Of a DNA stretch of 46,300 nt, positions 3,060 through 35,192 are shown in pieces. Each line of letters starts with the position of its first letter. The stretch's first letter is position 1. A model generated the notes under the pieces. It did no database searches and had not been told where the DNA came from. It worked only from the letters and a program-made list of their open reading frames with translations. Source of the DNA: a virus (lineage: Duplodnaviria; Caudoviricetes); IMG/VR virus record IMGVR_UViG_3300013006_001934, positions 1-46,300 of that record, one strand, 5' to 3'. Made by a program: the position numbers and the translations under genes.

Positions 3060-4379
3060 TTAAATTGATAATGAATTTTGCGACATAGAAATTCCTCCGA
3101 TGTCTTGAATATCTATCGGATATCCAAGATGTGAAAAGTAAAAACTTTTTGTTGGATAATTCTTTTCTCCTGCTCCTACGCCTATTGGAGCTTTACCATC
3201 GCTTTCATATTTATTTGTTCTAGACTGGATTCGATATATTTGATCATAGGAACTAAAGACTTGTTGACTACCAATAATGAGTCTTCCATATCCAATTGGA
3301 ATTGGTCCTCCTTCTCCTACTGTATTCACAGGACCATTAAACGTATAAGAAGGTTCTCCTCCTCCACTACCAGGAGATGCTTCAAAATCTGCAGAAGGAT
3401 TTGCGATTGATTGAGGACTTACCATTGGTGGCGGTTTCATTAAAAGCATAGAAACTCCAAGAGCTACTAATCCTAATATAGCTGGTAATATAGCAGCTAA
3501 TAAACCAAGAGATCCTCCTCCAGATACTGGAGCTAGCATAACTGACATAAATATCATAATTACCATTTTAGCTCCTGCCATACCACCTGCTGCAGCTTTA
3601 CCACCACCACCTCCTTTTCCTCCTCCTCCATTGTGAACAAGTATGTCGTTCGCAATATAAGTATGATTTGTTAACACATGAAAGTTATAAACTTTTTCAT
3701 TTGTATCTTCTTCTATCTTTTCTATAGGCATAACATCGCCACTTTTATGTATAAGAACGTCTCCAACTTTAAAATTTTCTAAAGGAGTGAATCTATTATA
3801 TTCATTAAAAAACCAATGATTACCTGTGGCTCTAATGATCGAGCCATCCCATAATGTAATTTTTAAAATTTTATTATTGTCATGTTCAAAGACTTTTTCA
3901 ATTATGTCAATTTGTATTTCTTTATCCTTATTAAAGGAAAATATTTCATCGCCTTCTTTTAAATCTTCTATATTCTTCATTCCGCTAGGAGTAGATATTT
4001 TTGTACCAGCTGGGAAACATCCTCCACCTCCACCACCCCCTCCGCCTCCTGCGCCTTCTAGCACTGGTATAATATCAATTGTCTTTAACTGGTTTTCAAA
4101 ATTCATAAACATTTCAGATTGAGATAACATTTCAAAATGCTCTTTTTTAACTTGACTGTTCTCTGTTGGCATTTCTTCTGCTTTAGGTACCCATAATGGT
4201 CTATTATTTATTAATATTTCATATTTAGCATTCTTTTCAGCTTGACTTATAAGAAATTTAGTTAATTTTTTCGTATTTGCTTCTATAGCCCTAAAAGCTT
4301 CTGCAACGCTTTTGACGTTCAAGTTCCATTCTTCACCAATCTCTTGGCCCAAGTTACCATGTAATTTAACTTTTACCAT
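3060..4379 (-). CDS. Tail assembly protein I (ubiquitin-like N-domain) with inserted Hint domain
   Basis: N-term VKLHGNLG...SVAEAFRAIEAN...IDIIPVLEGAGG; hydrophobic segment; C-term SYTFNGPVNTVGEGGPIPIGYGRLIIGS typical of gpI; lies between K and J. Confidence 0.9.
   Translation of the reverse strand: MVKVKLHGNLGQEIGEEWNLNVKSVAEAFRAIEANTKKLTKFLISQAEKNAKYEILINNRPLWVPKAEEMPTENSQVKKEHFEMLSQSEMFMNFENQLKTIDIIPVLEGAGGGGGGGGGGCFPAGTKISTPSGMKNIEDLKEGDEIFSFNKDKEIQIDIIEKVFEHDNNKILKITLWDGSIIRATGNHWFFNEYNRFTPLENFKVGDVLIHKSGDVMPIEKIEEDTNEKVYNFHVLTNHTYIANDILVHNGGGGKGGGGGKAAAGGMAGAKMVIMIFMSVMLAPVSGGGSLGLLAAILPAILGLVALGVSMLLMKPPPMVSPQSIANPSADFEASPGSGGGEPSYTFNGPVNTVGEGGPIPIGYGRLIIGSQQVFSSYDQIYRIQSRTNKYESDGKAPIGVGAGEKNYPTKSFYFSHLGYPIDIQDIGGISMSQNSLSI
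3630..4019 (-). other. Hint (intein/BIL-like) autoprocessing domain, 130 aa, no homing endonuclease
   Basis: Block A CFPAGTKISTPSG, block B IRATGNHWFF (TxxH), blocks F/G VYNFHV..NHTYIANDILVHN; next residue is Gly. Confidence 0.93.
4020..4049 (-). repeat. Gly10 tract immediately before Hint Cys1; a second Gly-rich tract follows the Hint (~3598-3629)
   Basis: Mixed GGN codons encode EGA-G10-C; downstream HN-GGGGKGGGGGK. Confidence 0.95.
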
Positions 4380-5118
4380 TGATTAACTCCTTGTACCTTA
4401 AAACATAGCTAGTATGCTTTTTAAGAAAACTATCATATATATTTACACAAGAAAAGGAATTGAAAGGCTGATGTAAAATTAATCCATCACCGATATATAC
4501 TGCCGCATGAGTAGGAAATTCATTGGAGACCCCAGGAAAAGTCATCATTAAACCATCAGATTTTTGTAATTTTACATTTTTATCTAATTTTAAAAAACCT
4601 TGGTGTTTGAAATTGCTCTCATACAAGTCCTTGATATCTTCTAAATATTTAGGATAAACTAAATCTTTAGGAAAACTTATATGTATGTTCTCTTCTTTCA
4701 AAGCGTATTCTTTCATTAATGTAAAGCAATCTGATTGGCCAAGAACAAAAGGTCTTCCAATGTAAGGATTATTTTCTTCATTTGGCTTATGAAAATTAAA
4801 AAAATCATATTTAATATTATATAATATATAATGAATCTTATAAAGATTACTATTATGTTTATCCATTTCACTAAACTCTATGCTTTCATTAACATGAGAA
4901 TGATAGCATCCTATAATTTTACCTAAAATAGAGCAATTTAAATAGTCTTGTGGGGATATCATAAAGTTATTTTTTCTATCGTCTGATCTATTTCGACAAG
5001 GATATATATCGAATTTATATGTTTTTTTGTCTAAATAAATAAAACCACAAATTTCTTCTTCAGGTTTTTTTAAAGCTAAATTTTTAATAGAATTTTTAAT
5101 TTGAATATTGAATTCCAT
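4366..5118 (-). CDS. Tail assembly protein K (JAB/MPN metallopeptidase + NlpC/P60)
   Basis: EEICGFI...YHSHVNESIEFSEMD (JAMM E, HxH, S, D); YIGRPFVLGQSDCF...HAAVYIGDGLILH. Start moved to the ATG at 5118 (MEFNIQ), just after the gpL stop. Confidence 0.9.
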   Translation of the reverse strand: MEFNIQIKNSIKNLALKKPEEEICGFIYLDKKTYKFDIYPCRNRSDDRKNNFMISPQDYLNCSILGKIIGCYHSHVNESIEFSEMDKHNSNLYKIHYILYNIKYDFFNFHKPNEENNPYIGRPFVLGQSDCFTLMKEYALKEENIHISFPKDLVYPKYLEDIKDLYESNFKHQGFLKLDKNVKLQKSDGLMMTFPGVSNEFPTHAAVYIGDGLILHQPFNSFSCVNIYDSFLKKHTSYVLRYKELINGKS

Positions 5119-5119
5119 A

Positions 5120-7429
5120 TTATGCTGCTCCAGGGCTTTGCTGAGATTGGAATTTGCCTTCAACAGAAGGAAATCCTCCAAATGGAAGTATTCCGATCAA
5201 TTGATTTCCATTTCCATCTTTTGGCGCTTGAATTTCCATTTTAACTAAAGGATCGTATTTCGAACCATTGGTTCCATAAGTATCATTTAAAGATAAATTA
5301 ATCTTGCCGAAATTCATATTTTCTTTCCATCTCAATCTACATCCTTCTAGACTCTTAGAGCATGAATCTGCACTCCAGTATAATGTATTTGGAGGAGAGT
5401 TTATGGAATCTGAAGTATGATCCATTTTGCAAACAAAATAAAATTTAATTTGATTTTTTTCTATGTATATATAATTTCCGAATTTATAAGCTGTTCCTTG
5501 CTTCCAAAGAGCTTTATCTATCCATATACCAGAGGTCCTTGCAAGATAGAAAGTGTTGTTTGATTCATCTGCTACTGGTGGTGCAGATTGGAGCCCTATG
5601 CTTTTTTGTGAGGACGATATATTTGTTTTAACGGCTACCCCAGAGTTAGAAGAGGTTACTATTTGATCAACGTAACCATATACTCCTGAGTGAATAACAG
5701 TTAATCTATCTGATTTTTCATATAAACATCCAGCTCCTCGATAAGAGAACGGACAATTTTTAGATAACAAAAGTCTTCCAGGTAATTTTATTCCTTCCAC
5801 ATCTAAAAGAGACGCTAATTCATAAACTACATTTTGAGAATCTTCTTGCGTTTTTCTGTCTATGTAGTAAATGTCTGGAGTTAGTTCAACTTCATAAATT
5901 TCAATTTTATTTTCATCAACTTGGTCTAAGTAAAGTCTACCCATATTGTGATATGAATTATACATTTGAGCATCACCAGTCGTATTCAAGTCGTCTGTTG
6001 CATAATCTGTAGCAATTAAATTAATATTTTGAGTTCCTAATTGAACATTGTCTCCTGTATGAGAAGCTACAAATGTACATCCTGTTGAGCTAATATTTTT
6101 TAAATATTGATCGTATGCAAATCCTGAGGAGCCCCAACTGTTAAATAATAACTTTGGCATATTTGAAAATTGTGTTGAAAATGAAATATCTAATTCCCCA
6201 GAAGTAGCTGAACCAAAATTATAATTTAATCTTAATACTGCTAATTTAGCATTTTCATTAGTAGCTGAATTTGTGCCAGTATAAATTCCAGTAGGTATAG
6301 TTAAGTAATTAATATCAAAACTACCAGTTAAAGATTTTGAGAAAGAAGTGGTAAAACTTGAGGTTGTCTGAGAAGAAATCGAATAATTAAAACTTTGCCC
6401 TTTAGCTTCCTCTATGGATCTAAAAGATAAGAAAGTAGCTAATTCAGAGCTCGATTCAGAAAAAGTGACAGGATAATTAACAGTTGAGCTTGTATTATTA
6501 GTGAAAGCTTTAGAGTCATAATAACAAAGAACTTTAATTTTATTATCTGTTCCTAATTTTCTAAACTCTTTCGAATCGTTTTGTATTAATCGCGTATAGC
6601 CTGCACTTGATGGAATAATAAAATTATCTGAAGAAAAACTGTCTATAATATCAGATGAATTGTTTACTTGTGCATTAACAAGCAAATTAAAAAAATCTAA
6701 AGAATTTAAGTGATAATTGTTCTTTTGAAGATCAATATTTAAAGTTTTTAGTCTATCGTCTGTGCGTAAAAGCGTAAAGATTTTATTAGTAGTCGCAGTA
6801 GTCTTTCTTGTATAAACTAACCATTTAGCAAAATCAATCGGGCACCTTTCTAAAGATCTAACAGTTAATGCATCTCCATCTCTTGAGGCCCAAGGGGTAT
6901 CTGTAAAAGTATTAAAAGGATTGACTCCTGCTGGAAAATTATTTGGACTTAAGTATCTTACAAAGGTTTTTCTTCTTGTCACTTTAGATCCAACAATATC
7001 TTTTAATTCATTTATTTGCATTCTTATGTACTTGTAAAAAGAGTTAAATTCGTCATCTAAGAATTGACTAGAAAATTTAATTCTTGGGGTTGGTATTGTT
7101 CCGTTTGAAGTTATATCAAATTGCTCTCCATAAATTGGAAATGGAAAATAAAGGTTTCCTCTCCAAGAAATAATTCCTCTATTTATATTGAAAAGATTAA
7201 AATCATTGTGTACTCTAATCACTCCGTCTTTAACTGGACCTTCTTTGTTTGGATAAGACACCATCGCTGGTTTAATCTCATTCAAATCAATTTCGTAAAG
7301 AAAAACTGGAGTACTAGGTTCTATTTCATGAATGTGAGAATTTATAGACCTTTGAGCTTCAAGCGCTTGTAAAAAATATTCACTTGCTTGAATAGTACCA
7401 TTCGCATTTATTCTTGGGCCCATTCCCAT
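5120..7429 (-). CDS. Minor tail protein L (lambda gpL-like) with large internal insertion
   Basis: IVGSKVTRRKTFVRYL, DIYYIDRK, YELASLLD, CPFSYRGAGC...DSCSKSLEGC (4 Fe-S Cys), LPFGGFP. Confidence 0.9.
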   Translation of the reverse strand: MGMGPRINANGTIQASEYFLQALEAQRSINSHIHEIEPSTPVFLYEIDLNEIKPAMVSYPNKEGPVKDGVIRVHNDFNLFNINRGIISWRGNLYFPFPIYGEQFDITSNGTIPTPRIKFSSQFLDDEFNSFYKYIRMQINELKDIVGSKVTRRKTFVRYLSPNNFPAGVNPFNTFTDTPWASRDGDALTVRSLERCPIDFAKWLVYTRKTTATTNKIFTLLRTDDRLKTLNIDLQKNNYHLNSLDFFNLLVNAQVNNSSDIIDSFSSDNFIIPSSAGYTRLIQNDSKEFRKLGTDNKIKVLCYYDSKAFTNNTSSTVNYPVTFSESSSELATFLSFRSIEEAKGQSFNYSISSQTTSSFTTSFSKSLTGSFDINYLTIPTGIYTGTNSATNENAKLAVLRLNYNFGSATSGELDISFSTQFSNMPKLLFNSWGSSGFAYDQYLKNISSTGCTFVASHTGDNVQLGTQNINLIATDYATDDLNTTGDAQMYNSYHNMGRLYLDQVDENKIEIYEVELTPDIYYIDRKTQEDSQNVVYELASLLDVEGIKLPGRLLLSKNCPFSYRGAGCLYEKSDRLTVIHSGVYGYVDQIVTSSNSGVAVKTNISSSQKSIGLQSAPPVADESNNTFYLARTSGIWIDKALWKQGTAYKFGNYIYIEKNQIKFYFVCKMDHTSDSINSPPNTLYWSADSCSKSLEGCRLRWKENMNFGKINLSLNDTYGTNGSKYDPLVKMEIQAPKDGNGNQLIGILPFGGFPSVEGKFQSQQSPGAA

Positions 7430-7447
7430 ATTATTTTTTCTCCATTT

Positions 7448-8047
7448 TTATGCAGATACTTCTTCAAACTTAGCACGAATAGAATAATTTTCTTTAAATG
7501 TGAAATTGGTTTCCCATTCTCTACAAACATATTTTGTTCTATAAGACTGTTCTGAATAAATATCTCCTGGATCATAAGCGAAAGCTTGAATTGATGCTCT
7601 TTGCTGTAAAAAGTAAATAATTGCTCTAGCTTCTCTAGATGTTCTTTGATCAAAATTTAGTTGCAAAGTTTTTAAGTCTGGATTTATACTCTTAGCTATT
7701 CTTTGTTCATATCCATTCCCAAACCTAATTGTTGAAACCGCTGGTTTATGTTGGAAGGAAGATGTGTAAGACGGGGTCCAAAGAAATTTACATACTGTTG
7801 ATCTTTCACTCACCCTTACAATGCCTCCCCAATATTCATTGCCCAGATCTGTTCCTGGTTCACTTGCCGTTATTTTTAAATGATCTTTTAAACAATACCA
7901 AACCACATTTTTATATCTTATAATATCATTTTTTAAGAAAACGTAATTTAGAGACTTATTTGCCCAAAGAATCATAGAATCATTTACTGATCCTGTGTCC
8001 TCTGCTCCAAAACTTTTTCGACTATATATTGATGTACCCATTCCCAT
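7448..8047 (-). CDS. Minor tail protein M (distal tail) with small N-terminal aromatic module
   Basis: PAVSTIRFGNGYEQRIAKSINP...IIYFLQQR...AFAY...AKFEEV, gpM signature; upstream of gpL. Confidence 0.88.
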   Translation of the reverse strand: MGMGTSIYSRKSFGAEDTGSVNDSMILWANKSLNYVFLKNDIIRYKNVVWYCLKDHLKITASEPGTDLGNEYWGGIVRVSERSTVCKFLWTPSYTSSFQHKPAVSTIRFGNGYEQRIAKSINPDLKTLQLNFDQRTSREARAIIYFLQQRASIQAFAYDPGDIYSEQSYRTKYVCREWETNFTFKENYSIRAKFEEVSA

Positions 8048-8616: not shown

Positions 8617-9423
8617 ATGTTATCTAGATTTACAAGAGAATTTAATAGGGTCTATATTAATGATGTTCCTGTAACAGGAGCGCAATCAATTTCTGCTAGT
8701 TACGACCTCCCAATAGAGAATATTAAATATTTAGGCTCTAATAATAATCATTTAAATAGGGCTCCAATTGGGATATTCATTGGGGCTCTAAATTTAGACT
8801 CTTTGTTCATTAATAATGATCAATTTATTCAATACACTGGCGAATTAGGAGCTAATTTGAAAGTCCAATATGAGGATAATACATTCGGTATGAATAGCGG
8901 ATATATGGCCGAATATGATTTTTCTTGTGGAATAGGCACAATACCAATTTTATCTACAAAATGGAACTTTTACAGTGATTTTGGTAATATTCCATCTTCA
9001 AAATTGCCTTTTCCTATGGATGAAAGCAAGCTTAATATAGTTAATCCAGGAGACATACAGATAGATTTTAATGAATTAGAAAATGAGAAAATTAACAATT
9101 TAAAGGTCAATATTAAATGCAATAGATTGCCTATTTTTGATGCAACTTCTGTAAAGCCTGTGGATGTTAAATTGCAATATCCAATTATTATTACCACAAG
9201 CTTTTCAATATCTTTGCATGATTATCAAAACAAACGCTTATTTGACTATCCAAGTAATCAAAATGTCTATGATTTTAATATAAATTTATACAAAAATAAT
9301 ACATCGACTGTAGTTAACTCTTTTAATATAAGAGATGCTTTGCTGATTAGAGAAGACTATAGTGTAGATGTAGATGGAAGTAGTTTAATGCAATTAACTT
9401 ATGAAAGCACTACGTCAAGATAG
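8617..9423 (+). CDS. Putative tail tube-like structural protein, paralog 1
   Basis: All-beta pattern, GAQSISASYDLP..., CNRLPIF...PVDV; resembles the two following ORFs. Confidence 0.5.
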   Translation: MLSRFTREFNRVYINDVPVTGAQSISASYDLPIENIKYLGSNNNHLNRAPIGIFIGALNLDSLFINNDQFIQYTGELGANLKVQYEDNTFGMNSGYMAEYDFSCGIGTIPILSTKWNFYSDFGNIPSSKLPFPMDESKLNIVNPGDIQIDFNELENEKINNLKVNIKCNRLPIFDATSVKPVDVKLQYPIIITTSFSISLHDYQNKRLFDYPSNQNVYDFNINLYKNNTSTVVNSFNIRDALLIREDYSVDVDGSSLMQLTYESTTSR

Positions 9424-9455: not shown

Positions 9456-10286
9456 ATGGCCAGAATATATTACGATCAATGTGAAATAAAAATAAATAAT
9501 ACTGGCGTATTAGCGGTATCTGCTAGTTTTAGTTCAGATATTACTTTAGGACCAATCTACACTCTAGGAAAGAGAAAACCTTTTAAAAACCAAATAACAA
9601 CTGGACCTAGTTCTAGCACTTTCCAAATATCTTATTTGATAAACCCTACAGGCGACCCAGCTTTTAATTCCGTTAAAGAGATCAAAAATTTTATATCTTC
9701 TCCGACAAATTATGATGGAGTAACTATAGCATTCGCTGGAGTAACTGGACAAAAATGTTATTTAAATAATTATAATTTAAAAATTGAACCTAATAATGTT
9801 ATAACTGCTCAAGCTAGTTATATTACATATGATCCAATTATAACAAATACTTTATTTCAAACTCCAAGGGATTTAGCTAATCCAAATAACGCTTCTGCAA
9901 CTAGTATTGCTCATAGCTCAAAAACTAATGTAGCATCTGGAAGAAATATTTTTGCTAAAGGCACCGCCAGCGAAATTACTGCTGATTTATATAGTTTATC
10001 TTATGCTTTTACTTGTAATCTAACTCCAATTTATGCTTTAGGACAACAAACTCCATTAGAAGTAAAACCAATTAGAGCTCAAGAGACTGTAAATATTACA
10101 GAAAATTTATTCACAAAATTAGTTTATACTGGTGAAAATATACCATTAAAAATTGAAATGTCTGGACTTTTAGATTCTAATAGTTTCACAATAGAAATGC
10201 CAGATGCATTTATTAATAATTCTACGTTAGCATCTAATCTTGATGATATTGTCCGAGCAACTAAAACAATAGTTCAATATTATTAA
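9456..10286 (+). CDS. Putative tail tube-like structural protein, paralog 2
   Basis: Internal repeat TLGPIYTLGKRKP / NLTPIYALGQQTP; shares the YLNNYNLKIEPN-type motif with paralog 3. Confidence 0.5.
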   Translation: MARIYYDQCEIKINNTGVLAVSASFSSDITLGPIYTLGKRKPFKNQITTGPSSSTFQISYLINPTGDPAFNSVKEIKNFISSPTNYDGVTIAFAGVTGQKCYLNNYNLKIEPNNVITAQASYITYDPIITNTLFQTPRDLANPNNASATSIAHSSKTNVASGRNIFAKGTASEITADLYSLSYAFTCNLTPIYALGQQTPLEVKPIRAQETVNITENLFTKLVYTGENIPLKIEMSGLLDSNSFTIEMPDAFINNSTLASNLDDIVRATKTIVQYY

Positions 10287-10287
10287 T

Positions 10288-11259
10288 ATGTTTTATAATG
10301 GAAAAAATGTAACTTTAAAAATCAACAATCAATTGATTGTTGCTACTGAAGCTCAGATGTCTTATGAGGCTCAAATTAGCCCTTATCTAGAAGTTGGTCA
10401 AAGACATGCTAATGATATAAGAGCAGATAATACCATACAAGGATCTTTAAATTTTAGCTATCACTATACTGGAGCAGATCCAATTAAAAATTTATTAAGC
10501 TTGGATGAAGGAATTACTTTTGATTTTGGAGGAATAAAACAAACTGGTTATATAAAAAGTTATAATGCTCGATTTAGTCCGCATAACCCAGTAGTATGTT
10601 CAACAGAAATATTATTTTTTAGAAGCCCAACTGGAACTTTTGTCCCTACTTATGATAATGGAGAAAATGTAAATAATATAGTTCATATTAATGACATTAG
10701 TATTAGTAATTTTAATAATCAAAATTTAACAGGTTCATATTTAAGTGCAAGTTATAATTATTCTACAGATGTAAGACCAGAGATTTATATTGGCGACACT
10801 TTTGAAAGAAGAGGAGTTTTTGGTTTAAAAGAAATTACTTTAAATATCACTTGTGACAATTTAAATCCTTTAGTAGAAATATCTGGCACAAGAGTAGGAG
10901 TAGTCTTGGGTACTTCACCTTTTGGAACATCTCTTGTGACTCAAGGATATGGAGTTACTGGATTTTTAACTAAAAAAGCTTTCCAAGCTAAAAATGAAGA
11001 ATTCTTAGTAAATGAATTAACTATCAGACAATTTAATGTGCTTGATGAAGCTACTATCTCATCCTTTTCCCCAACTTCTGGTGGTTATAAAGACTCAGTT
11101 ACAATTAATGGAACTAATTTTAATTATGTAGCTAAGGTTTTTTTTGGTGAATATGAAGCAGATGGATTTACTATAAATAATAGCAATACAATTACTGCTG
11201 TTGTACCTAGGATAAAAACTGCAGCTAGTCAACAAATAAGGATGCTAACTTTAGCATAA
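10288..11259 (+). CDS. Putative tail tube-like protein, paralog 3, with C-terminal IPT/TIG domain
   Basis: GYIKSYNARFSPHNPV; C-term ISSFSPTSGGYKDSVTINGTNF...ITAVVP. Confidence 0.6.
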   Translation: MFYNGKNVTLKINNQLIVATEAQMSYEAQISPYLEVGQRHANDIRADNTIQGSLNFSYHYTGADPIKNLLSLDEGITFDFGGIKQTGYIKSYNARFSPHNPVVCSTEILFFRSPTGTFVPTYDNGENVNNIVHINDISISNFNNQNLTGSYLSASYNYSTDVRPEIYIGDTFERRGVFGLKEITLNITCDNLNPLVEISGTRVGVVLGTSPFGTSLVTQGYGVTGFLTKKAFQAKNEEFLVNELTIRQFNVLDEATISSFSPTSGGYKDSVTINGTNFNYVAKVFFGEYEADGFTINNSNTITAVVPRIKTAASQQIRMLTLA

Positions 11260-11264
11260 TATAT

Positions 11265-12995
11265 ATGGGACTTATTACTTCTACTGGATTTTTTAAATAT
11301 ATTCCACCAAATCCAAAGATAACTTCTACCTCTAGTCCAACTGGAGCTTTAGGCCAAGTGATCTCTATAAATGGAGAAGATTTAGATTATGTTGATACTC
11401 TTTCTTTTGCTGGAGAAAATTTAAATTTTTCATTAGTAAATGGCAATCAAAGGATGGATTTTCTAGTTCCTTCAAACCCAGATACTGGGAAATTATTAAT
11501 TGCTTCTGATACTTTTACAATTACTGGTCAAAATAATTTACCTTTTTTACCCATATTTGAATTAGAGGATTTTGATCCTGGAAATGGATCAGAAGGAGAT
11601 GTGATCAATATTAGTGGAAAAGTTTTAACGTCTATCAATACTGGATATATTTATGCTACTCCAATATTAAATGATATAAGTTATTACTTCAGTGGAGCGA
11701 AGAATTACTTTGACATACCAATGTCAACTAAAAGTGGAGTTTATAGTATAAATTTTGCAGAAAATATTAATCCTACTGGTGAAATAAATAATTTTGAAAG
11801 ATTAGCTGCTAATTATTTTAATTTTAGCAGTGGAGCATCATTAAATGTTAGGTATAACATTACAGGGGATTTAAGTAAAAAATATTATGAAAACCATGTA
11901 CTTTCTCTCTCTGCAATGATTACCACGGGTTTCCAATCTTATGCAATCCAGTTACCAACTGGATTTTCTGGAGTTGTGATTCCTATCTCTTCTGGTCTAA
12001 ATCATACAAATTATGCTGTTTTTTTAAATCTACATAAACGTTTTCCTGAAGATTCATCTACTAATAATTTTAATCAGATCTATATTAGCGAAAAAACTAC
12101 TGGATCTTTTAAGATAAACGTATCAAATGTCCTAGATACTGAAATGGATTTAGATGTCTTGTTATTTACATCTAGTGGATTCATGTTGGATTCTGGAGTT
12201 TTTGAAAGAAATTTTGTAAATATTCCTGCAAATTCATCTTCTGAAATTATATATTTTGATCGATTAAGTGGAATAGATCGACAAAATAATTTATATCCAC
12301 CGTTTTTATTCACAAGCATAGAAAAAATTGATGGTATAAATATAGGTAATTCTTACATTTCTACAAATGTATCCAATTTAGAAAAAAATAATTTTACAAT
12401 TAACGTCCCAAATAAAACGATCAATAATACTTTTCGTTTAAATTATTTTACAATTAAAAATGATTATACTAATTTAGCAACATTTGTTTATGAAGGAGAC
12501 AAGTCTTATTATAAAAAAGTTTATTTGTTTACTGGATCTCAGGACACTTTTCAAGAACGTCTACCAATGAAAAATATAACAATTAATAATAAAAATAATT
12601 TGTCTTTTGAAGTGCCTTCAACTGATTATTATATAAATAGTAAAATTGAATTAAATAATACTGCCAATATTTCAAAACAATTTGCAACTAATTTTATAGA
12701 AACTCCAACTCCTACTTCTGTGAATCCTAGTGGCGGATTTAACGGAACGAATATAAGCATACAAGGCAAAAGTTTTAAAAAGCCTATATTAATTGATAAT
12801 CCAGCTGCATATGAAAGCTGTTTTGTAAGATTTAGATATGCTGACAATATTTATCCAGAAAGTAAAAGCACTTTTCAAACTTCTTTTAGAATCATAAACA
12901 AAGGATTATTAAGCGGATCTATACCTTTGAGCAGTATTCCAACTGGTCGATACGCAATACAAATGATGTCTGAAAATGGAGGATTATTCGAATGA
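11265..12995 (+). CDS. IPT/TIG-domain tail fibre or appendage protein
   Basis: PKITSTSSPTGALGQVISINGEDL; FDPGNGSEGDVINISG; PTSVNPSGGFNGTNISIQGKSF; central lectin-like repeats. Confidence 0.7.
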   Translation: MGLITSTGFFKYIPPNPKITSTSSPTGALGQVISINGEDLDYVDTLSFAGENLNFSLVNGNQRMDFLVPSNPDTGKLLIASDTFTITGQNNLPFLPIFELEDFDPGNGSEGDVINISGKVLTSINTGYIYATPILNDISYYFSGAKNYFDIPMSTKSGVYSINFAENINPTGEINNFERLAANYFNFSSGASLNVRYNITGDLSKKYYENHVLSLSAMITTGFQSYAIQLPTGFSGVVIPISSGLNHTNYAVFLNLHKRFPEDSSTNNFNQIYISEKTTGSFKINVSNVLDTEMDLDVLLFTSSGFMLDSGVFERNFVNIPANSSSEIIYFDRLSGIDRQNNLYPPFLFTSIEKIDGINIGNSYISTNVSNLEKNNFTINVPNKTINNTFRLNYFTIKNDYTNLATFVYEGDKSYYKKVYLFTGSQDTFQERLPMKNITINNKNNLSFEVPSTDYYINSKIELNNTANISKQFATNFIETPTPTSVNPSGGFNGTNISIQGKSFKKPILIDNPAAYESCFVRFRYADNIYPESKSTFQTSFRIINKGLLSGSIPLSSIPTGRYAIQMMSENGGLFE

Positions 12996-15900
12996 GCGTA
13001 TTTTTTACAATAAATTCCTCGCAACCAACTATTCAAGCTCCATCAACTGCTTTGGCTATCAATGGGGAAACAATTTTTATTTCTGGAGAGCAATTCAATA
13101 AAAATATTATTAAAATTTCTGGACAAGATGTATATAATCCATCTTCAAAGTTCACGTTTAATGGAATTTTTAACCAAAATATATCTGGAATTAATAATAC
13201 ATTATCTAAAGATACAGTAGGATTTACATTGTCTGGTATTTCTCCATCTAAATACAAAGTATATGTTTATAATGACTCAAGCGTTTCAAGTAATTATTTT
13301 GATTTAAAAGTCTTAGCTCAACCCACCATTAGCGGTTTTGATAATAAAAATGTGCTTCCAGGTCAATATATTAAAGTATCTGGATCTAATTTTTATCCTG
13401 GTGCAAATATTTCATTTGTTGATGATTTAGGTAATAAAGTTCGTCCATCTTTTCAAGAAACTGGATTATATAGAGTTACTGGGGCAGATACGCAAAATTA
13501 TGGAACTGGATATCAAATTGGAAATATTTTCTATTTAGAAGGAATAAAAAATTATACTAAAAATTCTTATGCAATTCTTACGGTATCTACCACGGGCATA
13601 AATGGTTCTCTTGGGAGCTTTAATATAAATAATTCTGGTATTTTTACTGTTCCAAATTTAAATACTGAAATTGAATTTATTCCAAGGACTGGAAATGGTA
13701 GAGGAGCTTTAATTAATTTTCTTTATGAAAAATACGAGAATACAGGATTATTAGAGTTCCTAGAGTTTCAAGTACCATATAATATTAGAAAAAATCAAAG
13801 CGGTATAATAGAAAATATAAAATTTAAAGATATATCTAGCGGAACTCAATTCAGTGGTTTTTATATATCTGGATATCCTAATATATATAATTTTTCTCCA
13901 CAAACTGGTTTGATAGAATCTACTAGCGTTTTACTAAGTGGGGATAATTTATCATTCACGCAATCTATTAAAATTGGTGATATTCCCATAAGTATATACT
14001 CTCTGCTAGGAGATACAGGAATATCTTTTACAATACCAAATTTTAGTTCTTCTGATCATATTACCATTTCTGGAATTTATGGTTCAGATAAAAGTGCAAA
14101 TATCTTAAGCGTTTATTACCCTCAATTAACTGCTAGTGGTTTTACTCCCAATGATGTATTAGCTGGCACTGGAGCAGTAGTAAACATAAGTGGTAGATAT
14201 CTTCAAAGAATAAATTATATTAATCTTGGGCAACCAAATGTATTAATAAAAGATATTATAGTTAATGCAAACGGTACTTTAGCTTCATTTGTTCTGCCAA
14301 ATGCTTATACTACCACATCTCTTAGAATTTTTTCTGTAGATTTTCCTACTTCTGGTCATTTAATTAAATCTCCAAGTTCAAATAATCTTTTAATATCTAC
14401 CACTAGACTTTCTGAAGCAAATATTGATATCAGATATTTATCTGGTATACAAGCTGCGAAATATTTAGACGAAGTAGAAATATATAGCTCTAGTGGAACT
14501 TCTGGAGATTATGGAAATCTAACTAACTCAGATGTCTTCTTTTTAGGAATTACTGGGCATATAGATGAACCAAATGCCTATTCAATCAGTGGAATTAAAG
14601 TCTCAAATTCTGCTACTGGTATCAGATTTAAAGTGCCAAGAGAAGTAAGAAATCCTCAAGCAAGAATTAAAATTAAAAGAAATCGTTTTGGAGAAAGCTA
14701 CATTCTTCCATCAAACAAATCAATTGATGTATTGCCTACTATTTTTAATGTAACTTCTTCTAATACTTTATATAATAGTTTAGGATATTTAACTATATCA
14801 GGTATCAATGCTTCTAATGCTAATTTAATTTATTTTAGTGGATATTCGGGTACTCAAAATCTTTTAGGATATAAAGAAATAAAAAGTTTTCCTCTAGAAA
14901 TAGTGAGTAGAAATTTATCTCAAATAACTGCAGCTGGTGAAAGCAATTTAACTGGATATTCAATTTTTGAAGCTAAACTTGGTGGAGATATAACTGGATC
15001 TGGAGAATTATTTTTATTTAATAACTATTATGATACTGGAATTGGATATGAAAATAATATTATTACAAAAAATAAAAATATTAAAGTATCAGCAATTAGC
15101 GGGTTTCGTCCACCAAATTCAGATATATTCACTAGCCCTGGATATGTTTCTACATCATTAGAAAATCCATTTTTTTATCAAATACAAACCAATTCTAGAG
15201 CAACTCAATTTGAATTTTCTGCAACGACAATCTCTGGAGTTGGAGTAGGAGAGTTTCCGAGTGGATTAGAAAATTATTTAAATCCTCAAAATCAAATCTT
15301 TGGTCAACCTATGATTGGTGGAATTTTTTATTTAAAAATAAGAGCTTTAGATGGAGAGAGACCAAATGAGGGGATGATTTTAAATTTAGCAGTTGGAACT
15401 TCTGGCAGATCTTTAAGTGGTCCAGGAATAACTTATCGAGGAGACTGGAATACTGGAATCGGATATATAGGAAGTAATTTGAGGAGAGATGTAGTAAGCA
15501 CGATTCCTCCAACATACGGCGTTAATTATTGGTATGCAGCATATACCAATATAGATTCTGAACCTGCACCAGGTAATCCAAATTGGATTCCATTCACAAA
15601 TGAATTTTCAGCAACAGCTACTAAAATTTTATTAGCTGAAGAATCTAATATTACTAATTCATTAAATATGGGACAAGAAGGAGTTCCAAGTGGATTTATT
15701 AAAACTGTTAATGATGTTAATGTAGACGATGGAAGTGGATTTTATATTGGGTATGATAATAGATACAATCCTGGCAGACCAAAGTTCAGAGTTGGAAATC
15801 AGTCTAGTTATATTAAATTTGATGGAAAAGGACTTGATGTTGTTGGCGCACTATCTGGTATTATTACAACTTCAAGAAATGTTACAGATGCTCAAAATAC

Positions 15901-18475
15901 AGTAAATAGTGATTATTCTGTGGCGTTAGGTTTAAATAATACTATAACAGCTAATAATGATAATGTATTTATATTCGGAACAAATAATACAGTCACTGGT
16001 GCTCGTGGAAGTAGTATTATTGCTGGAAAAAATAATAGAATCACTTGTGTAAGTAGAATTTTTACAGATAATTCAAATATAGGTGGTGGATCAGAAAATC
16101 TTGTGTTGGGTTCTTTCTGCAGCATCTTAGGCGGATATGGAAATTCAGTAGACGCAACTTCATCAGGACTTTCTTCAATAGCTAACCAAATGTTTATAAA
16201 TGATATCAGCGGGTCTGATAACATTGTAGAATATTTATCAGAAGTATTTACAACTGACTTAGCTATATTAACCTCTTTAGAATCTATAGAAGATATATAT
16301 AGAACTGAAAAAATTTCTAATATTACTGTTGGAGATTATCAAATGAGTGTCACGCCACAGTTTAGTGGCGATGAATATCTTAGAGTTAATAATTGGGTCA
16401 GTTTATTATCTCCAAACTTGTACTCTGGGTCTTTTGTTACAGAAGATCCAAATTATATTTGCGAGTTTAAAGTAGGAAAAACAGGCTTACCCTCTGGTTC
16501 GAAAAGATATTTTGTGCCATTTACAAAAAACTTCACCCATTACTCGGGCGAAAAAAATCTAGTTATTCTAACTAGTATAATTGAAGGAGACCAAAACTAT
16601 AAATTAATTAATCCAAGTGGATTAGATTCAAGTGGTTTCTATTTGAATTTTCCCAACAATCTTTCTAGCGGATTAAACGTCAGTTATTTCGTAGGTCCTA
16701 CTGGATTTTTCACTGGAACAGAATTTAATTCATCAGTATCTTTAGAGATAAACAAAAATCAACCATTCTTGAACTTAATATCAGGAACAGGATACAGATA
16801 TGACATACCATTACGAAGAAAAGGTATTAATTTCCTAAATACAGTTAATAATTTTAGTCATGAATCTATTTATATAAGTAATTTATCTGGTAACTCTTCA
16901 GATTTAAAATTAGCTTTAAGCTCTAATATAAAAGACGAATATGTAGATTGCTTGTCAATAGGATATACTGGAAGGATTAATAACCAAAATATACAAGTGT
17001 ATCAAACTGGATTAAACTCTGGGAGTGGGGCAAAATTTATATCTTTATTATCTAATATCAATGATAGTGGATATATACCATTCTGTAACATAGTTCAGAC
17101 TGGAAATAGTATCGATAACGTTTATGCATTTATGATATCAGGAAAAACACATTCTGGATTTTATTTTGAGACTGCAGAGGTTCTAAAAGAAAATATTATA
17201 TTAAATGTAAGTATATATAGGACTGGTCAATTTACTTTTGATAATACAATCATCAATGTCGAATCTCAAAGGTTGACTGGATTTTTATCAAAAGATGTAT
17301 CTATTAAATTTCAAAATAATTTAAATTATTACCCAAATACTTTAATAACAACAGAGAATGTTAATTCTAGCAATATTTATATAATATATGCAAAAAACAT
17401 ATCAAAAACAGGATTATATGCTAAACTTTCAGATGATTTGAAAACAGGAGAAATAATTAATATAAATCATGTTTCTTTTTCTAACACTGGCGATCAAGTT
17501 TTTGATCTTAAAGCTAATACATTAATTGATTCAAGCAGCATCTTAAGTGGTGATACATGCATCTACTTGAATAATAATTTTAATCATTCTGAGTTGAAAG
17601 TCTTTCCTAGAGTATATAGTTTAAATAGCGATTTCATAAATCGACCTTATATTATTCAAGATAAAACAAATAATAGTTTTTGTTTCAAATTATCTGGAGT
17701 CTTATCTCCTTCTCAAATGACAGGGATTGTATGCGAATATATAGCTTCTGATCTAACCAGAGATCTTAATATAGCTAGAAGTGTGTTATCAACTTTTAAT
17801 TATAGTCGTCTTGGCGCATTTGGATTCGCAGATGTTGGAAGTTCATCAATACTTGGCGGCACAGGAAATTATATTAAGGGGCTTGTTTCTACAATAGCTG
17901 GAGGAGTTTTAAATCGAATCGTTGGAGATTTCAATTTGATTCCTGGAGGAAGATCTAATCAAATTATTGATCTATCTGATCAAACTTCACAATATCCAAA
18001 AAGTGCGTTTTGTACGATATTAGGAGGCGGAGGTAATCTTATTGAAGGAAATTCTCAATATTCTAATATTATTGGTGGCAGTGGAAATCATATATTGAAT
18101 TTAGACTTGTCGAATGATAAAGCTGGATCTACTATCGTTGGTGGCTCTTCTAACGAAATATCTGGAGCTTTTTCTACTATTCTTGGTGGAGAAAACAATA
18201 GCATATCTGGATCTTATAGCCATGTTTTCGGAAGAAATATCAACCTTACAAAACCTGGCTCCGTTGTTATTAGTGATAGTAGTACTGGAAATAAAAATAT
18301 CAATCAGGAAAATACTATAGTATTAAATTTCTCTGGTGGGCTATATATTACTGGAAATGCACTTGGAACATCTCCTATAGTTCTTGACGTAACTAAATTA
18401 CCTACTTCTTCTGCTAGTTTACCAATCGGAGCTGTGTATCTTATTGGAACAGCTCTAAATGTTAAAACTACTTAA
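12992..18475 (+). CDS. Large tail fibre / adhesin (IPT/TIG repeats, Ig, GG-x2-N beta-helix repeats, lectin-like repeats)
   Basis: Multiple P-x-I-x-x-F-x-P...G...I-x-G-x-N IPT starts; repeated S-x-I-x-GG-x-x-N motifs at ~15900-16160 and ~17830-18260. Confidence 0.78.
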   Translation: MSVFFTINSSQPTIQAPSTALAINGETIFISGEQFNKNIIKISGQDVYNPSSKFTFNGIFNQNISGINNTLSKDTVGFTLSGISPSKYKVYVYNDSSVSSNYFDLKVLAQPTISGFDNKNVLPGQYIKVSGSNFYPGANISFVDDLGNKVRPSFQETGLYRVTGADTQNYGTGYQIGNIFYLEGIKNYTKNSYAILTVSTTGINGSLGSFNINNSGIFTVPNLNTEIEFIPRTGNGRGALINFLYEKYENTGLLEFLEFQVPYNIRKNQSGIIENIKFKDISSGTQFSGFYISGYPNIYNFSPQTGLIESTSVLLSGDNLSFTQSIKIGDIPISIYSLLGDTGISFTIPNFSSSDHITISGIYGSDKSANILSVYYPQLTASGFTPNDVLAGTGAVVNISGRYLQRINYINLGQPNVLIKDIIVNANGTLASFVLPNAYTTTSLRIFSVDFPTSGHLIKSPSSNNLLISTTRLSEANIDIRYLSGIQAAKYLDEVEIYSSSGTSGDYGNLTNSDVFFLGITGHIDEPNAYSISGIKVSNSATGIRFKVPREVRNPQARIKIKRNRFGESYILPSNKSIDVLPTIFNVTSSNTLYNSLGYLTISGINASNANLIYFSGYSGTQNLLGYKEIKSFPLEIVSRNLSQITAAGESNLTGYSIFEAKLGGDITGSGELFLFNNYYDTGIGYENNIITKNKNIKVSAISGFRPPNSDIFTSPGYVSTSLENPFFYQIQTNSRATQFEFSATTISGVGVGEFPSGLENYLNPQNQIFGQPMIGGIFYLKIRALDGERPNEGMILNLAVGTSGRSLSGPGITYRGDWNTGIGYIGSNLRRDVVSTIPPTYGVNYWYAAYTNIDSEPAPGNPNWIPFTNEFSATATKILLAEESNITNSLNMGQEGVPSGFIKTVNDVNVDDGSGFYIGYDNRYNPGRPKFRVGNQSSYIKFDGKGLDVVGALSGIITTSRNVTDAQNTVNSDYSVALGLNNTITANNDNVFIFGTNNTVTGARGSSIIAGKNNRITCVSRIFTDNSNIGGGSENLVLGSFCSILGGYGNSVDATSSGLSSIANQMFINDISGSDNIVEYLSEVFTTDLAILTSLESIEDIYRTEKISNITVGDYQMSVTPQFSGDEYLRVNNWVSLLSPNLYSGSFVTEDPNYICEFKVGKTGLPSGSKRYFVPFTKNFTHYSGEKNLVILTSIIEGDQNYKLINPSGLDSSGFYLNFPNNLSSGLNVSYFVGPTGFFTGTEFNSSVSLEINKNQPFLNLISGTGYRYDIPLRRKGINFLNTVNNFSHESIYISNLSGNSSDLKLALSSNIKDEYVDCLSIGYTGRINNQNIQVYQTGLNSGSGAKFISLLSNINDSGYIPFCNIVQTGNSIDNVYAFMISGKTHSGFYFETAEVLKENIILNVSIYRTGQFTFDNTIINVESQRLTGFLSKDVSIKFQNNLNYYPNTLITTENVNSSNIYIIYAKNISKTGLYAKLSDDLKTGEIININHVSFSNTGDQVFDLKANTLIDSSSILSGDTCIYLNNNFNHSELKVFPRVYSLNSDFINRPYIIQDKTNNSFCFKLSGVLSPSQMTGIVCEYIASDLTRDLNIARSVLSTFNYSRLGAFGFADVGSSSILGGTGNYIKGLVSTIAGGVLNRIVGDFNLIPGGRSNQIIDLSDQTSQYPKSAFCTILGGGGNLIEGNSQYSNIIGGSGNHILNLDLSNDKAGSTIVGGSSNEISGAFSTILGGENNSISGSYSHVFGRNINLTKPGSVVISDSSTGNKNINQENTIVLNFSGGLYITGNALGTSPIVLDVTKLPTSSASLPIGAVYLIGTALNVKTT

Positions 18476-19263: not shown

Positions 19264-19292
19264 ATATTACCGCTGTTTTAAGTTTATGTCAA
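19264..19292 (-). promoter_or_regulatory. sigma70-like promoter
   Basis: TTGACA-N17-TAATAT, 6 nt before ATG 19257. Confidence 0.7.
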
Positions 19293-20453
19293 CTCAAATA
19301 GATAGAAGTATTTAGATTCTTCCCAAAAAATAGGGTCATCTATTACTTTAATAGCTTTATTCTCGAAAGGTATATCGTTCATATAAGCGGCTTTTGAATT
19401 ATAAATTTTGCCTTTGCTTATTGTGATTTTATTGGATTTGTAAAGTAAGCTATCAATATTTCTGTCTTTTAATATTTCTAGATCTTTCTTCTGAGTTTTC
19501 ACAGACCTTATAATTTGAGCATAGTCCATATAATCTAGCTTAATACTCTTAACAAAGTCTTCTGATAAAAACGTGGACAAGACGAATGTTTTTCCTAATT
19601 TTTTCAAGTCTTTCACAAATTCTATACTATGATTCTCATCTAAATCATAAATAATCTGAGCAATGTTATCTTTATATTTATTTAAAATATCATATCTTAT
19701 AGGTTTTGAAGTAACTATTGAGCAATTATTTCTTTTAAGTTGCTCTTCTAAAACTTCTTCATTAAACTCATAATCCATTCTCATAATCAATGAATTAACT
19801 CCTAACTTAGAGATATCTGCAATTACGCTATTTGGAACGGATTCTATTAATCTTCTGCTATAATCTTCTCCGATATAATTTGTCTTTATATTGATTTTTT
19901 CCATTCCAAGAAACTCTAATACATTATTAGCTATTTCTATTGGATCTATTTCATTAATTGTCTTGGGAGATTCTTGAGCCGAATAACTTGGCTTTCTATC
20001 TTTTTTAGTTGCTTCTAATGTTTTGACTTTATTTTTTGAACTAAAGTATGGCCCAGCATTTTCTGGTCTACTATTTGAATATAAAGCTACGATAGGCTTA
20101 TCATAATGACTTGCTACATGGACTCCAAAGCTATCTGCACCAAAATGTAACATGCCTCTTTTTATAATATAAGCTGCTTGATTGATAGTAGTCTTACCTT
20201 GCAAATGATAACAGTTTTCTACAGGTTTTTCATCTTTTCCGCCAATTTGCACTATATGAATCTTTTTTTCTTGTAGTCTAGGAAGAAGTTGATTTATCAC
20301 TTCTTGCCAAAGGTCATAGCTTTTAGAGTCATATTTACTGCATGGTTGAAATGATACATAATCATCAAATGGAATTGGACAATATTTTTCATATATAGAT
20401 GGTTTATCTATTTTAAGACCACAATTTAAAGCGTAAGTTTCAATTAGATGCAT
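19284..20453 (-). CDS. Glycosyltransferase family 9-like, C-terminal lobe, plus unknown domain
   Basis: IVQIGGKDE...LQGKTTINQAAYIIKRGMLHFGADSFGVHVASHYDKPIVALY. Confidence 0.75.
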   Translation of the reverse strand: MHLIETYALNCGLKIDKPSIYEKYCPIPFDDYVSFQPCSKYDSKSYDLWQEVINQLLPRLQEKKIHIVQIGGKDEKPVENCYHLQGKTTINQAAYIIKRGMLHFGADSFGVHVASHYDKPIVALYSNSRPENAGPYFSSKNKVKTLEATKKDRKPSYSAQESPKTINEIDPIEIANNVLEFLGMEKINIKTNYIGEDYSRRLIESVPNSVIADISKLGVNSLIMRMDYEFNEEVLEEQLKRNNCSIVTSKPIRYDILNKYKDNIAQIIYDLDENHSIEFVKDLKKLGKTFVLSTFLSEDFVKSIKLDYMDYAQIIRSVKTQKKDLEILKDRNIDSLLYKSNKITISKGKIYNSKAAYMNDIPFENKAIKVIDDPIFWEESKYFYLFELT

Positions 20454-22359
20454 ATTTATAATCCTTGTAAGCTATATTAGTTTTACCATTATGAAGATAA
20501 GTTAAAAATCTTTGCGTTTGAGAATACGGCAAGAAAGCTAATTCAAAGTATCCTTTGTGAGTAGAGATACCTTCTAACCAAGTCAAGCTATCCATTTGAG
20601 AAATATATTGTATAACTTTATGGACATGAGGATTTGCTTCTAAGATATCAAAGTATTCTGGTTTAATCGCTACATATAAGTTGTATGATGGATATTGTTC
20701 TTTGATAGACTTGAAAAGACTTGTAGATAAGAATATATCTCCTATGCTTTCTGGCATAACATACAATAACCTTTTACCATCATCATCTTTATCTAGCAAA
20801 TCATCAAAAGCAATTTTCTGATTTTTACTATTGTCTTGAAGAGCAACTTGACGAAAATAGTTTTCTATATCAACCCTTTTAGTTCCTTTTTCTATTTCTT
20901 TCATCCAGTATTGATAGCCTTCATCTTCTTTATTTATATCTTTAGCTTTCAATATACTCTTATATAACTGCAGAACCCATTCAGAATTATCTTTAATTTC
21001 TGGCAGAGTACAATATGCATCTTTTTCTTCGACTTCGAAAGAGTAGTTTTTATCTACAACGGGAGAAGAGTCTATGAAGTCTTCTATAATTTTACCAATT
21101 GTTTCTACTGAATAGTTTTTTACTGTCCATTCTCTTGCTTTTTTGCCGTAGTCTGATCTTTCTTCTTTGGACATGCTATAGACTTTTGATAAATTAATTG
21201 CTATAGATTTTGGAGATGTAGAAGCTTTAATGAATTCTGTTCCATGCTCTCTGTATTCATTCCATTCTAATGGAAGACTATACGCCTCTTGTTGGCACAT
21301 CTCTTCTCCACAAGAGTAATTGGTAACTAAAGTGATAAGTTCGGTGAGCTTGGCTTCTTGTATTGGAATTTCTTGACCTCCGCTAGTAAATGGATGACAA
21401 TAAACATCCATCAAATTGTAGACCTCATTTAGACTTTCTTCAGTTACCCCTAAGCCTACATTAGTAGTGATTTGAGATTTTTTATTTCCACAGAATCCAC
21501 AATCTAAGTCTTGACCATTAAAATTTTTAACTTCATAATTACCGCATGCTTTGCATATGTATGTAGTAAATATTTCCTTGGGATCAATATCATATTCTTT
21601 TGCTAGCTTCATGATATTCCAGCCTTCACCAAAATGAGTATGAAGTAATAACCCAGAGTTTTTTATATTATTCTCTTTTTTCCATATAGAGTATCCTTCT
21701 AAAAGATTGGGAACGCTTTTCCTCAACTGATTCCTAAATACGAATCCAACAATAAATTTATTCTTATCTATATTAAATTTAGATCTTAACTCTAATCTTT
21801 TTTCGTCAGAAATTCTATAAAAATTATCTGTATCTAATGCACCATGAACAGTCTTGACATGGCCATGTCCTAACTTATGTAAGGCTTTTGTTGCAAAATC
21901 ACTCCATATCCAATAATTTTTAACTTTGGGCGCGCATTTAACAGCTGATTCAAGAATAGGTAAAGAATCTAGAGTCGTCCATATTACTGAGCTTATCTTA
22001 TTAAACCAAGGCTTATCTATGGCGAAATCTACTCCCCAAATATCTTGCACAGCAATATAAACATCTGGTTTTTCCTCTTTTATTATCTCGTCTAATAAAT
22101 GAGCTCCATAACTAGCCATTCTAGCTAAATGAGGATCTTTATTTAATTGCTCTACTTCTTGTTGCGAATTTGGAAGTGAACCACAGCTTTTCCAAGGAGT
22201 TCTTTCTAATTGAGGATTTCCTTTCTGCATTCCGCAGCAATAATTTACTATATCATATTTATTAGTTTTATATAAATATTTGATAATGGCTTTAGAATTT
22301 CTTCCAAAGCCAGTCTTCGCTAAAGAAAAATCAGATTGAAAGACTATCTTTTTACGCAT
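20440..22359 (-). CDS. GT4-type glycosyltransferase fused to a GT9 N-terminal lobe
   Basis: KTGFGRNS, RNQLRKSVPNLLEG, LNEVYNLMDVYCHPFTSGGQEIPIQEA; CxxC...CxxC insert; C-term MPESIGDIFLSTSLFKSIKEQYP. Confidence 0.85.
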   Translation of the reverse strand: MRKKIVFQSDFSLAKTGFGRNSKAIIKYLYKTNKYDIVNYCCGMQKGNPQLERTPWKSCGSLPNSQQEVEQLNKDPHLARMASYGAHLLDEIIKEEKPDVYIAVQDIWGVDFAIDKPWFNKISSVIWTTLDSLPILESAVKCAPKVKNYWIWSDFATKALHKLGHGHVKTVHGALDTDNFYRISDEKRLELRSKFNIDKNKFIVGFVFRNQLRKSVPNLLEGYSIWKKENNIKNSGLLLHTHFGEGWNIMKLAKEYDIDPKEIFTTYICKACGNYEVKNFNGQDLDCGFCGNKKSQITTNVGLGVTEESLNEVYNLMDVYCHPFTSGGQEIPIQEAKLTELITLVTNYSCGEEMCQQEAYSLPLEWNEYREHGTEFIKASTSPKSIAINLSKVYSMSKEERSDYGKKAREWTVKNYSVETIGKIIEDFIDSSPVVDKNYSFEVEEKDAYCTLPEIKDNSEWVLQLYKSILKAKDINKEDEGYQYWMKEIEKGTKRVDIENYFRQVALQDNSKNQKIAFDDLLDKDDDGKRLLYVMPESIGDIFLSTSLFKSIKEQYPSYNLYVAIKPEYFDILEANPHVHKVIQYISQMDSLTWLEGISTHKGYFELAFLPYSQTQRFLTYLHNGKTNIAYKDYKYASN

Positions 22360-25524: not shown

Positions 25525-25765
25525 CTTTGCTTTTCTTTTTCCGCTTTTTATTTGATTTAAAATTGTTAATTGACTTATCTATATTTATTTGAAATTCGCT
25601 TAAGCCTTCTTTAAGAGCTGCAAAAGACTTCTCTTCATTATTCAAAGAGTAAAATACGTCTGCTTTACTATTAGTCTTACCATGCTGGATAGTAATAAAT
25701 AAATAATCTATATTTTCTTTCTCTAGTTTACCTAGAATATCGTAGATGTTGTCCATTGATGCCAT
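25508..25765 (-). CDS. Hypothetical protein
   Basis: 85 aa, preceded by a good promoter, overlaps the dnaE start. Confidence 0.65.
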   Translation of the reverse strand: MASMDNIYDILGKLEKENIDYLFITIQHGKTNSKADVFYSLNNEEKSFAALKEGLSEFQINIDKSINNFKSNKKRKKKSKDDEDY

Positions 25766-25772
25766 ATTGAGT

Positions 25773-26443: not shown

Positions 26444-26447
26444 TGTA

Positions 26448-35156: not shown

Positions 35157-35162
35157 ATATAT

Positions 35163-35191: not shown

Positions 35192-35192
35192 T

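Follow-up and report, generated by a model that had tools for sequence, protein, structure and literature searches.

In chaperone-usher pili, each subunit uses its N-terminal extension to complete the Ig-like domain of its predecessor, which lacks strand G. A comparable arrangement is predicted in a 46,300-nucleotide (nt) stretch of DNA from a virus of the Caudoviricetes (IMG/VR record IMGVR_UViG_3300013006_001934; "the window" hereafter denotes this whole stretch), where a series of IPT/Ig domains is distributed over three consecutive plus-strand open reading frames (ORFs): ORF A (10288-11259, 323 amino acids (aa)), ORF B (11265-12995, 576 aa), and ORF C (12992-18475, 1827 aa). A preliminary description of this DNA had noted that IPT domains appear split across these consecutive genes, and the termini, the 5-nt gap between A and B, and the ATGA overlap between B and C are all as it gave them. 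Based on sequence comparisons, we consider it likely that A, B, and C come together again head to tail through complementation of beta-strands, which would anchor a long beaded fiber on a predicted trimeric tail-tube ring, with the case for the joint between A and B being firmer than that for the joint between B and C.

As in these pili, ORF A appears to lack the whole of strand G of its last domain and ORF B the second half, and in each case the N-terminus of the next protein matches strand G. The likeness to chaperone-usher assembly drawn in the preliminary description would thus hold for the mechanism but not for family membership, which we reject because no chaperone or usher family was found among the 30 window proteins (of 53 window ORFs) covered by our Pfam scan, and because no leader precedes the donor strands, which begin at residue 2. 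The context is that of a phage tail module, and the A-B-C system shows no sign of a homopolymer; unlike the pili, it would form a heteromeric multidomain chain built on the IPT fold, and A, B, and C look like fragments of an ancestral tube-fiber polyprotein.

By analogy, the nearest phage precedent would be the BppU-BppA joint of Lactococcus phage Tuc2009, where, in the passages of the crystal structure report that describe this joint, a 25-residue C-terminal BppU hairpin completes a sheet of BppA domain 2, giving a composite that resembles a titin domain and attaches an accessory carbohydrate-binding protein (PMC4742702). In both systems a phage structural protein would complete the beta-sandwich of its partner, in our case as judged from sequence and from the geometry of a fusion. 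Set beside the description of BppU and BppA in those passages, however, the Tuc2009 anchor gives a C-terminal hairpin at one baseplate joint, whereas here the distal protein would give an N-terminal strand; moreover, we predict two serial joints of different register, involving IPT/TIG domains and a tube ring, and fused and re-fused relatives reveal an origin by fission. For the tube end of the system, the relevant comparison is with phage T5, whose pb6 and p140 proteins carry a duplicated tube domain and form trimeric rings (PMC8718954; 10.1101/2022.09.20.507954). According to these papers, pb6 also has a C-terminal Ig-like domain and the side fibers are held near the tip via Ig-fold proteins, but the pb6 domain is described as an independent decoration and a separate dodecamer of p132 bears the fibers, whereas in our system the tube protein's own incomplete IPT domain is the predicted socket. 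The T5 work also raises the point that side-fiber anchoring could differ in lambdoid phages (10.1101/2022.09.20.507954), and the present locus gives a concrete candidate answer to how side fibers are fixed on non-T5 siphophage tails, namely a domain of 74 residues that would take up a peptide of 12.

The fold and the tandem order of the domains are those of the IPT/TIG arrays (PF01833) of bacterial surface proteins, plexins, and MET; in the matches seen, such arrays elsewhere form single chains, whereas here several genes share one array. Keyword searches of open-licence papers turned up no description of an IPT fiber anchored on a tube by serial donation of N-terminal strands, which is weak evidence of absence because the same searches missed Tuc2009. 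The joining principle is already known, and the variant predicted here from sequence is new, conserved, and well supported by natural fusions.

The AlphaFold model of ORF A (predicted local distance difference test score (pLDDT) of 81) contains a duplicated tail-tube domain at residues 1-250 (10288-11037), for which Foldseek returned a major tail protein as the best match (8xan_A, E 1e-7, TMq 0.54), with the T5 tip chains 7qg9_A and 7qg9_G also matched (probability 1.00). Two tube domains in a single chain characterize T5 pb6/p140-type proteins, and by this model ORF A is a duplicated tube protein of this type; since T5 pb6 and p140 make trimeric rings, ORF A probably also forms a trimeric ring in the tail. 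This match to tube proteins is in agreement with the tube ring that the preliminary description had proposed as the attachment point, the ring itself being a prediction. Sequence searches against solved structures gave weak IPT matches at best. The remainder of the chain is the C-terminal domain IPT1 (11050-11256), which comprises strands A-F only and would serve as acceptor 1. TIG_SUH is matched over positions 4-61 of 94 only (23 bits, below the cut-off of 24), the end of the domain falls at position 324 of the one-chain orthologue P0168 described below, and in the model of ORF A alone the domain takes up the final 70 residues, with six main strands of which the last is 317-321. The protein thus ends ...QQIRMLTLA, after strand F, with the whole of strand G absent, and its last eight residues (strand F and turn, QIRMLTLA, 11233-11259 including the TAA stop) are the most conserved window of IPT1 (rank 1 of 67). 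We note that the IPT1 region (11011-11220, plus strand) also gave a weak profile match to AcrIF14 chains (E 0.055), which is probably due to chance or to a shared sandwich.

Following a 5-nt intergenic gap (TATAT, 11260-11264), ORF B begins MGLITSTGFFKYIPPNPKITS and runs to ...GRYAIQMMSENGGLFE. The cut between A and B lies in the F-G turn, so that the entire G strand sits on ORF B, where residues 2-13 (11268-11303) constitute the putative donor 1: they fit the G-strand profile described below, correspond column for column to in-cis G strands, and are kept at the start of ORF B in relatives whose A is 44-93% identical. A view of how the two halves may fit together is provided by P0124, a natural A-B fusion of 920 aa with 56% identity to ORF A (1-318) and 36% to ORF B (10-576), which is encoded as a single ORF, with no intergenic gap, at a locus (L038) where the neighbors are the same and the overlap with its own C gene is retained. 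The junction in this protein is EIKVLGVGGLGVSSGLFKY, and pairwise alignments place ORF A residue 323 on fusion residue 323 and ORF B Gly2 on fusion residue 324 without gaps, indicating a fusion without linker after loss of the ORF B Met. Pfam TIG (PF01833) spans this junction at full profile length (residues 255-334, profile 1-84 of 84, 36.2 bits vs a cut-off of 20.9). In the AlphaFold model of the fusion stretch (pLDDT 92), for which the alignment had the ORF A rows placed on IPT2 rather than on IPT1, strand F (316-321) is followed by a two-residue turn, G' (324-329), and G (333-334), and the G strand pairs with A', a segment not modelled as a strand in ORF A alone. The stretch forms a seven-strand beta-sandwich that superposes on solved IPT domains, including the complete IPT of Sec5 (1uad_C; Z 13.0, root-mean-square deviation 1.7, 86 of 92 residues).

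Fused forms were also sought by profile search, where the best 150 of 15,661 matches were considered; many of these are unrelated IPT arrays, and fused forms are undercounted because such arrays dominate the search. Even so, the check for fused-gene relatives that the preliminary description had suggested was successful, yielding, besides P0124, 13 distant orthologues in which a single chain holds the tube domain together with 9-11 detected IPTs (1243-2186 aa, 28-36% tube-domain identity). In the profile alignment to one of these, P0168, the end of ORF A and the Met of ORF B both fall at position 324 and the start of ORF C at 581, such that both junctions lie within domains, IPT1 and IPT4, of one-chain orthologues. 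It follows from this alignment that A holds IPT1 minus G, B holds G1, IPT2, IPT3 with an insert, and IPT4 to mid-G, and C holds the remaining part of G4, with some six IPTs after it. In a further orthologue, P0033, for which the search gave no locus, IPT1 is complete in cis and the protein ends there. The preliminary description would have been contradicted by C-terminal IPT domains that are complete alone; that of ORF A lacks the last strand present in the fusion and in the fused orthologues. Judged by sequence, A, B, and C are thus separately encoded pieces of a tube-plus-IPT-array protein that relatives make as one chain.

Within ORF B, donor 1 is followed by a complete IPT2 and by IPT3 with its large insert (11313-12704), and then by the C-terminal IPT4 (12705-12995), the putative acceptor 2. 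The insert (11661-12560, plus strand, about 290 residues) weakly resembles H-lectin/gp53-like modules, with matches below cut-off to H_lectin in the window (E 0.11) and to Gp53-like_C in L038 (E 0.086). Across relatives, ORF B is anywhere between 553 and 1115 aa long, and its two termini are fixed. Its end, which falls at about position 579 of P0168 and was set side by side with fused IPT4 ends, puts the cut between B and C about four residues inside strand G of IPT4, leaving ORF B without the second half of this strand. ORF C, which overlaps ORF B by ATGA, starts MSVFFTINSSQPTI, and its residues 2-9 (12995-13018) are the putative donor 2, corresponding to the second half of the IPT4 strand G by alignment to P0168 position 581 (probability 97) and by the G-strand profile. 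A Shine-Dalgarno-like GGAGGA for ORF C (12978-12983) lies within the last codons of ORF B, and such a word is present upstream of ORF C in 17/17 loci and upstream of ORF B in 1/17. The preliminary description was correct in placing the missing last strand at the N-terminus of the next protein at both junctions, as indicated by the G-strand profile and the P0168 alignment, but it treated the two junctions alike, whereas the cuts differ, one being in the F-G turn and the other mid-G. The complete internal F-turn-G end that it took as its template, YKVYVYNDSSVSSNYFDLKVLAQPTI, is at ORF C residues 88-113 (13253-13330). The rest of ORF C (13025-18475) comprises about six more IPT domains followed by beta-roll-like and other fiber modules, as judged from profile matches, with the distal modules giving matches below cut-off to LbR_Ice_bind (E 1.5e-4) and UspA1_rep (E 0.04); H_lectin is annotated (precomputed) in 4 of 21 ORF C homologues. 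At one locus only (L016, 12635-18061, plus strand), ORF C occurs as two ORFs of 1221 and 560 aa with a 78-nt gap, which is either an error or a further fission.

The donor strands were scored with a 12-column G-strand profile built from 104 complete repeats of fused orthologues, using 171 other phage N-termini as controls. Scores above the control maximum were obtained for 11/15 distinct ORF B N-termini and 21/27 distinct ORF C N-termini, bearing in mind that homologues are non-independent, and the register of the match places the first column on residue 2 of ORF B and mostly four columns further in for ORF C. An alternative profile, built on 98 bacterial repeat ends, showed weak enrichment, with ORF B ranking 2-79 and ORF C 0-66 among 173 controls. 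Small second residues (G, A, P, or S) are of the kind that permits removal of the initiator Met, and such a residue is found at the second position of ORF B in 17/17 and of ORF C in 16/16 loci, compared to a background of 12/43 other window ORFs and 72/142 ORFs in the loci (28-51%, the rows being related).

Trees of three adjacent tube genes place the fused locus L038 within the split clade (support 97/95, 97/95, and 95/97), and an approximately unbiased (AU) test, in which two loci were dropped by the script and a simple model was used, rejected a tree that groups all 14 split loci without L038 (p 0.011). The simplest reading of these sequences is a fission in the ancestor of the clade followed by one linker-free re-fusion, and tolerance of such a re-fusion is easiest to accept if the termini already touch. 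The fused, split, and re-fused relatives would make this an unusually clear case of tolerated gene fission inside a fold.

If A, B, and C do reassemble in this manner, ORF A would build the tube ring, and, upon removal of the initiator Met, the first 12 residues of ORF B would occupy the G-strand groove of IPT1, with the last two residues of ORF A acting as the turn. The first 8 residues of ORF C would in turn complete strand G of the ORF B IPT4. One A-B-C arm would be carried on each ring subunit, and since groove 1 and groove 2 are of unequal length, A, B, and C would join in that order only and ORF B would not polymerize. The resulting arm of roughly 10-11 IPT domains would present the distal beta-roll-like and lectin-like modules of ORF C to the host surface, and the fiber is probably adhesive. 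Such an arrangement would also explain how ORF B can double in length in relatives, or the distal modules of ORF C change, while the ends stay fixed.

A number of observations weigh against this reading. The six-strand domain of ORF A is still folded by AlphaFold on its own (pLDDT 72-90), and the one-chain fusion model speaks to geometry and not to binding in trans, as any Ig halves tend to fit. The end of ORF B near P0168 position 579 is placed by a weak alignment (probability 46, E 2e-4), and a B-C-only fusion is absent among the 21 ORF C homologues. The N-termini that fail to beat the controls number 4/15 for ORF B and 6/27 for ORF C. The ORF B donor is only slightly more conserved than the neighboring domain (0.51 vs 0.45), with 34/86 windows as high, and the ORF C donor is short and less conserved than the domain (0.43 vs 0.50), with 143/213 windows as high; furthermore, conservation of the last Gly codons of ORF B is possibly due to the Shine-Dalgarno site that overlaps them. 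The clade used in the AU test was chosen after the quick tree had been seen, and long branches are present. Intradomain cuts are also to be expected by chance, because linkers amount to only a few residues per repeat. Finally, no cultured phage carrying the ORF A family was found, tblastn against annotated phages giving one weak IPT match.

In principle, the breaks could be mistakes of sequencing or assembly within a single long gene, and one-chain versions do occur in relatives. We examined 36 loci, of which 31 (including the window's own contig and several duplicates) were readable over the A-B junction and 31 over the B-C junction, with five per junction being too short or mis-picked, and all 31 are split in both cases. 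The gaps between A and B are 1, 3, 4, 5, 6, 7, and 13 nt, so that each of the three frames is represented and a stop is never missing, while the spacing between B and C is -4 nt (29 loci), -1 (1), or 0 (1), covering two frames. In addition, 27 protein clusters of 320-324 aa, at 47-97% identity, end where ORF A does or slightly ahead, Logan contigs (contigs rather than raw reads) from two runs that are the possible source are identical across both junctions, and a Logan contig of another study covers the stretch with 119 substitutions and zero indel at either junction. The frameshift errors that the preliminary description named as a potential refutation are therefore not the case, and we regard the chance of an artifact as negligible. 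Because the readable loci are all split and the A-B gaps occur in all frames, a fixed frameshift and read-through are rejected together with error, as also indicated by the independent contig and the Shine-Dalgarno-like word before ORF C. Covalent joining in the broader sense, whether by recoding (frameshift, read-through, or hopping) or by ligation of adjacent termini, is very improbable: although the termini are adjacent in the fold of the fusion model, SPP1 tube proteins gain Ig domains by frameshift according to the relevant part of one paper (PMC8718954), and ORF B has no Shine-Dalgarno-like word in 16/17 loci, the varied frames and ever-present stops argue against it, as do the site that ORF C has of its own in all 17 loci and the failure of the Pfam scan to find an intein or ligase family matching A, B, or C.

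We also consider it unlikely that the truncated IPTs are simply tolerated as they are, A, B, and C being separate tail proteins that use different surfaces for attachment, or are not attached to one another at all, and the strands being mere leftovers of fission. This would be compatible with the domain of ORF A being modelled as folded without strand G, with the lack of special conservation in the ORF C donor, and with the variable tail of the tube gene in a large clade cut after strand A, but not readily with the terminal ORF A strand being better conserved than any other window of its domain, with the retention by ORF B of exactly the 12 missing residues, or with a linker-free fusion nested within the split clade. 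We infer, moreover, that unbound fission at a load-bearing joint would lose the fiber. Slightly less probable again is a looser topology, where the ORF B donor enters its own C-terminal groove, either closing the protein or polymerizing it into fibers of variable length, or where strands cross between arms. The pilin-like placement of donor and acceptor at opposite ends of ORF B, and a TG-S/Y-F motif on both the ORF B and ORF C N-termini in two loci (L017 and L018), would allow for this; however, the first half of groove 2 should be taken by ORF B's own last four residues, and the domain order is fixed and colinear in fused orthologues.

Head-to-tail reassembly of A, B, and C might be one instance of a broader phenomenon. 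We tentatively suggest, at somewhat less than even chances, that Ig-domain fission is a general, repeatedly invented plug system, with one IPT array cut at five or more different places, each cut giving a peptide-plus-groove pair, in which the two joints of this phage would be non-interchangeable locks that set the assembly order, and middle and distal adhesin modules could be swapped without touching the tube. Our wider survey covered the best 80 of 101 further loci, where the arrangement is fully fused in L039 and L040. In 51 loci by pattern (the L046-L112 group), the cut falls after strand A of IPT1 and the next gene, a 1100-aa IPT fiber, starts from A'; the design is reciprocal, in that the tube gene retains a strand-A-like tail, and the second residue is always small, but donation is less sure in this group, as the tube-gene tail is variable. 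Further cuts are found after strand A of IPT5 (L042, L044, L050, and L052), at the boundary of strands D and E in the last IPT (L042, L044, and L052), within strand A of IPT2 (L116), and after IPT1 strand F with an ambiguous downstream register (L078, L079, and L084). These cut types occupy separate groups of the quick tree. An argument that intradomain cuts are nonrandom in themselves was rejected, the linkers being too short; the weight rests on the persistence of each cut with contiguous ends, and not on its position. Among the same loci, the IPT5 and D/E cuts (L042, 11531-13819 and 13835 onward, and also L044 and L052) lie ahead of a gene of >2400 aa, and in L088, L100, L109, and L118 a 1600-aa tube fusion is followed by an IPT gene of 195-210 aa with a conserved 17-residue N-terminal extension.

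For annotators, these loci are a warning that an Ig domain which seems "truncated" at the end of a phage gene can serve as a socket. Provided that binding is tight and orthogonal, the pairs would be ready-made assembly tags, and a plug system that had truly been invented repeatedly would offer a natural library of split-Ig tags, orthogonal and non-covalent, for which the fused, the split, and the re-fused state are each recorded.

The surroundings of ORFs A-C form a siphophage-type tail module in which minus-strand, lambda-like tip genes are followed by five plus-strand genes. The tip genes (3060-8047, minus strand; gpI-, gpK-, gpL-, and gpM-like by PF05100, PF05939, phrog_32, phrog_30, phrog_18, and phrog_14) mark the tail as siphophage-type, and the gpI-like tail assembly protein (phrog_32, 3060-4379) has a Hint domain at residues 119-250 and is possibly self-processing. 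Three adjacent co-oriented genes on the plus strand end with ORF A. The first of them (8617-9423, 268 aa), for which Pfam and PHROG gave no match, and the second (9456-10286, 276 aa), which matches the phrog_290 minor tail protein (E 1e-6), are both syntenic in relatives and are presumed tube-ring paralogues, the former by position and inspection. The equivalent of the first gene in L001 (7814-9136, plus strand) encodes 440 aa rather than 268, with an additional C-terminal domain (weak PF25489), and in this respect neighboring tube genes gain appendages too. Elsewhere in the window, a DnaE-type polymerase is encoded in two minus-strand genes (22987-27727), with the PHP domain at 26963-27727, the catalytic part at 22987-25524, and an exonuclease gene between them, and glycosyltransferase and nucleotide-sugar genes are located close to the fiber genes (19284-22359 and 33993-45304, minus strand).

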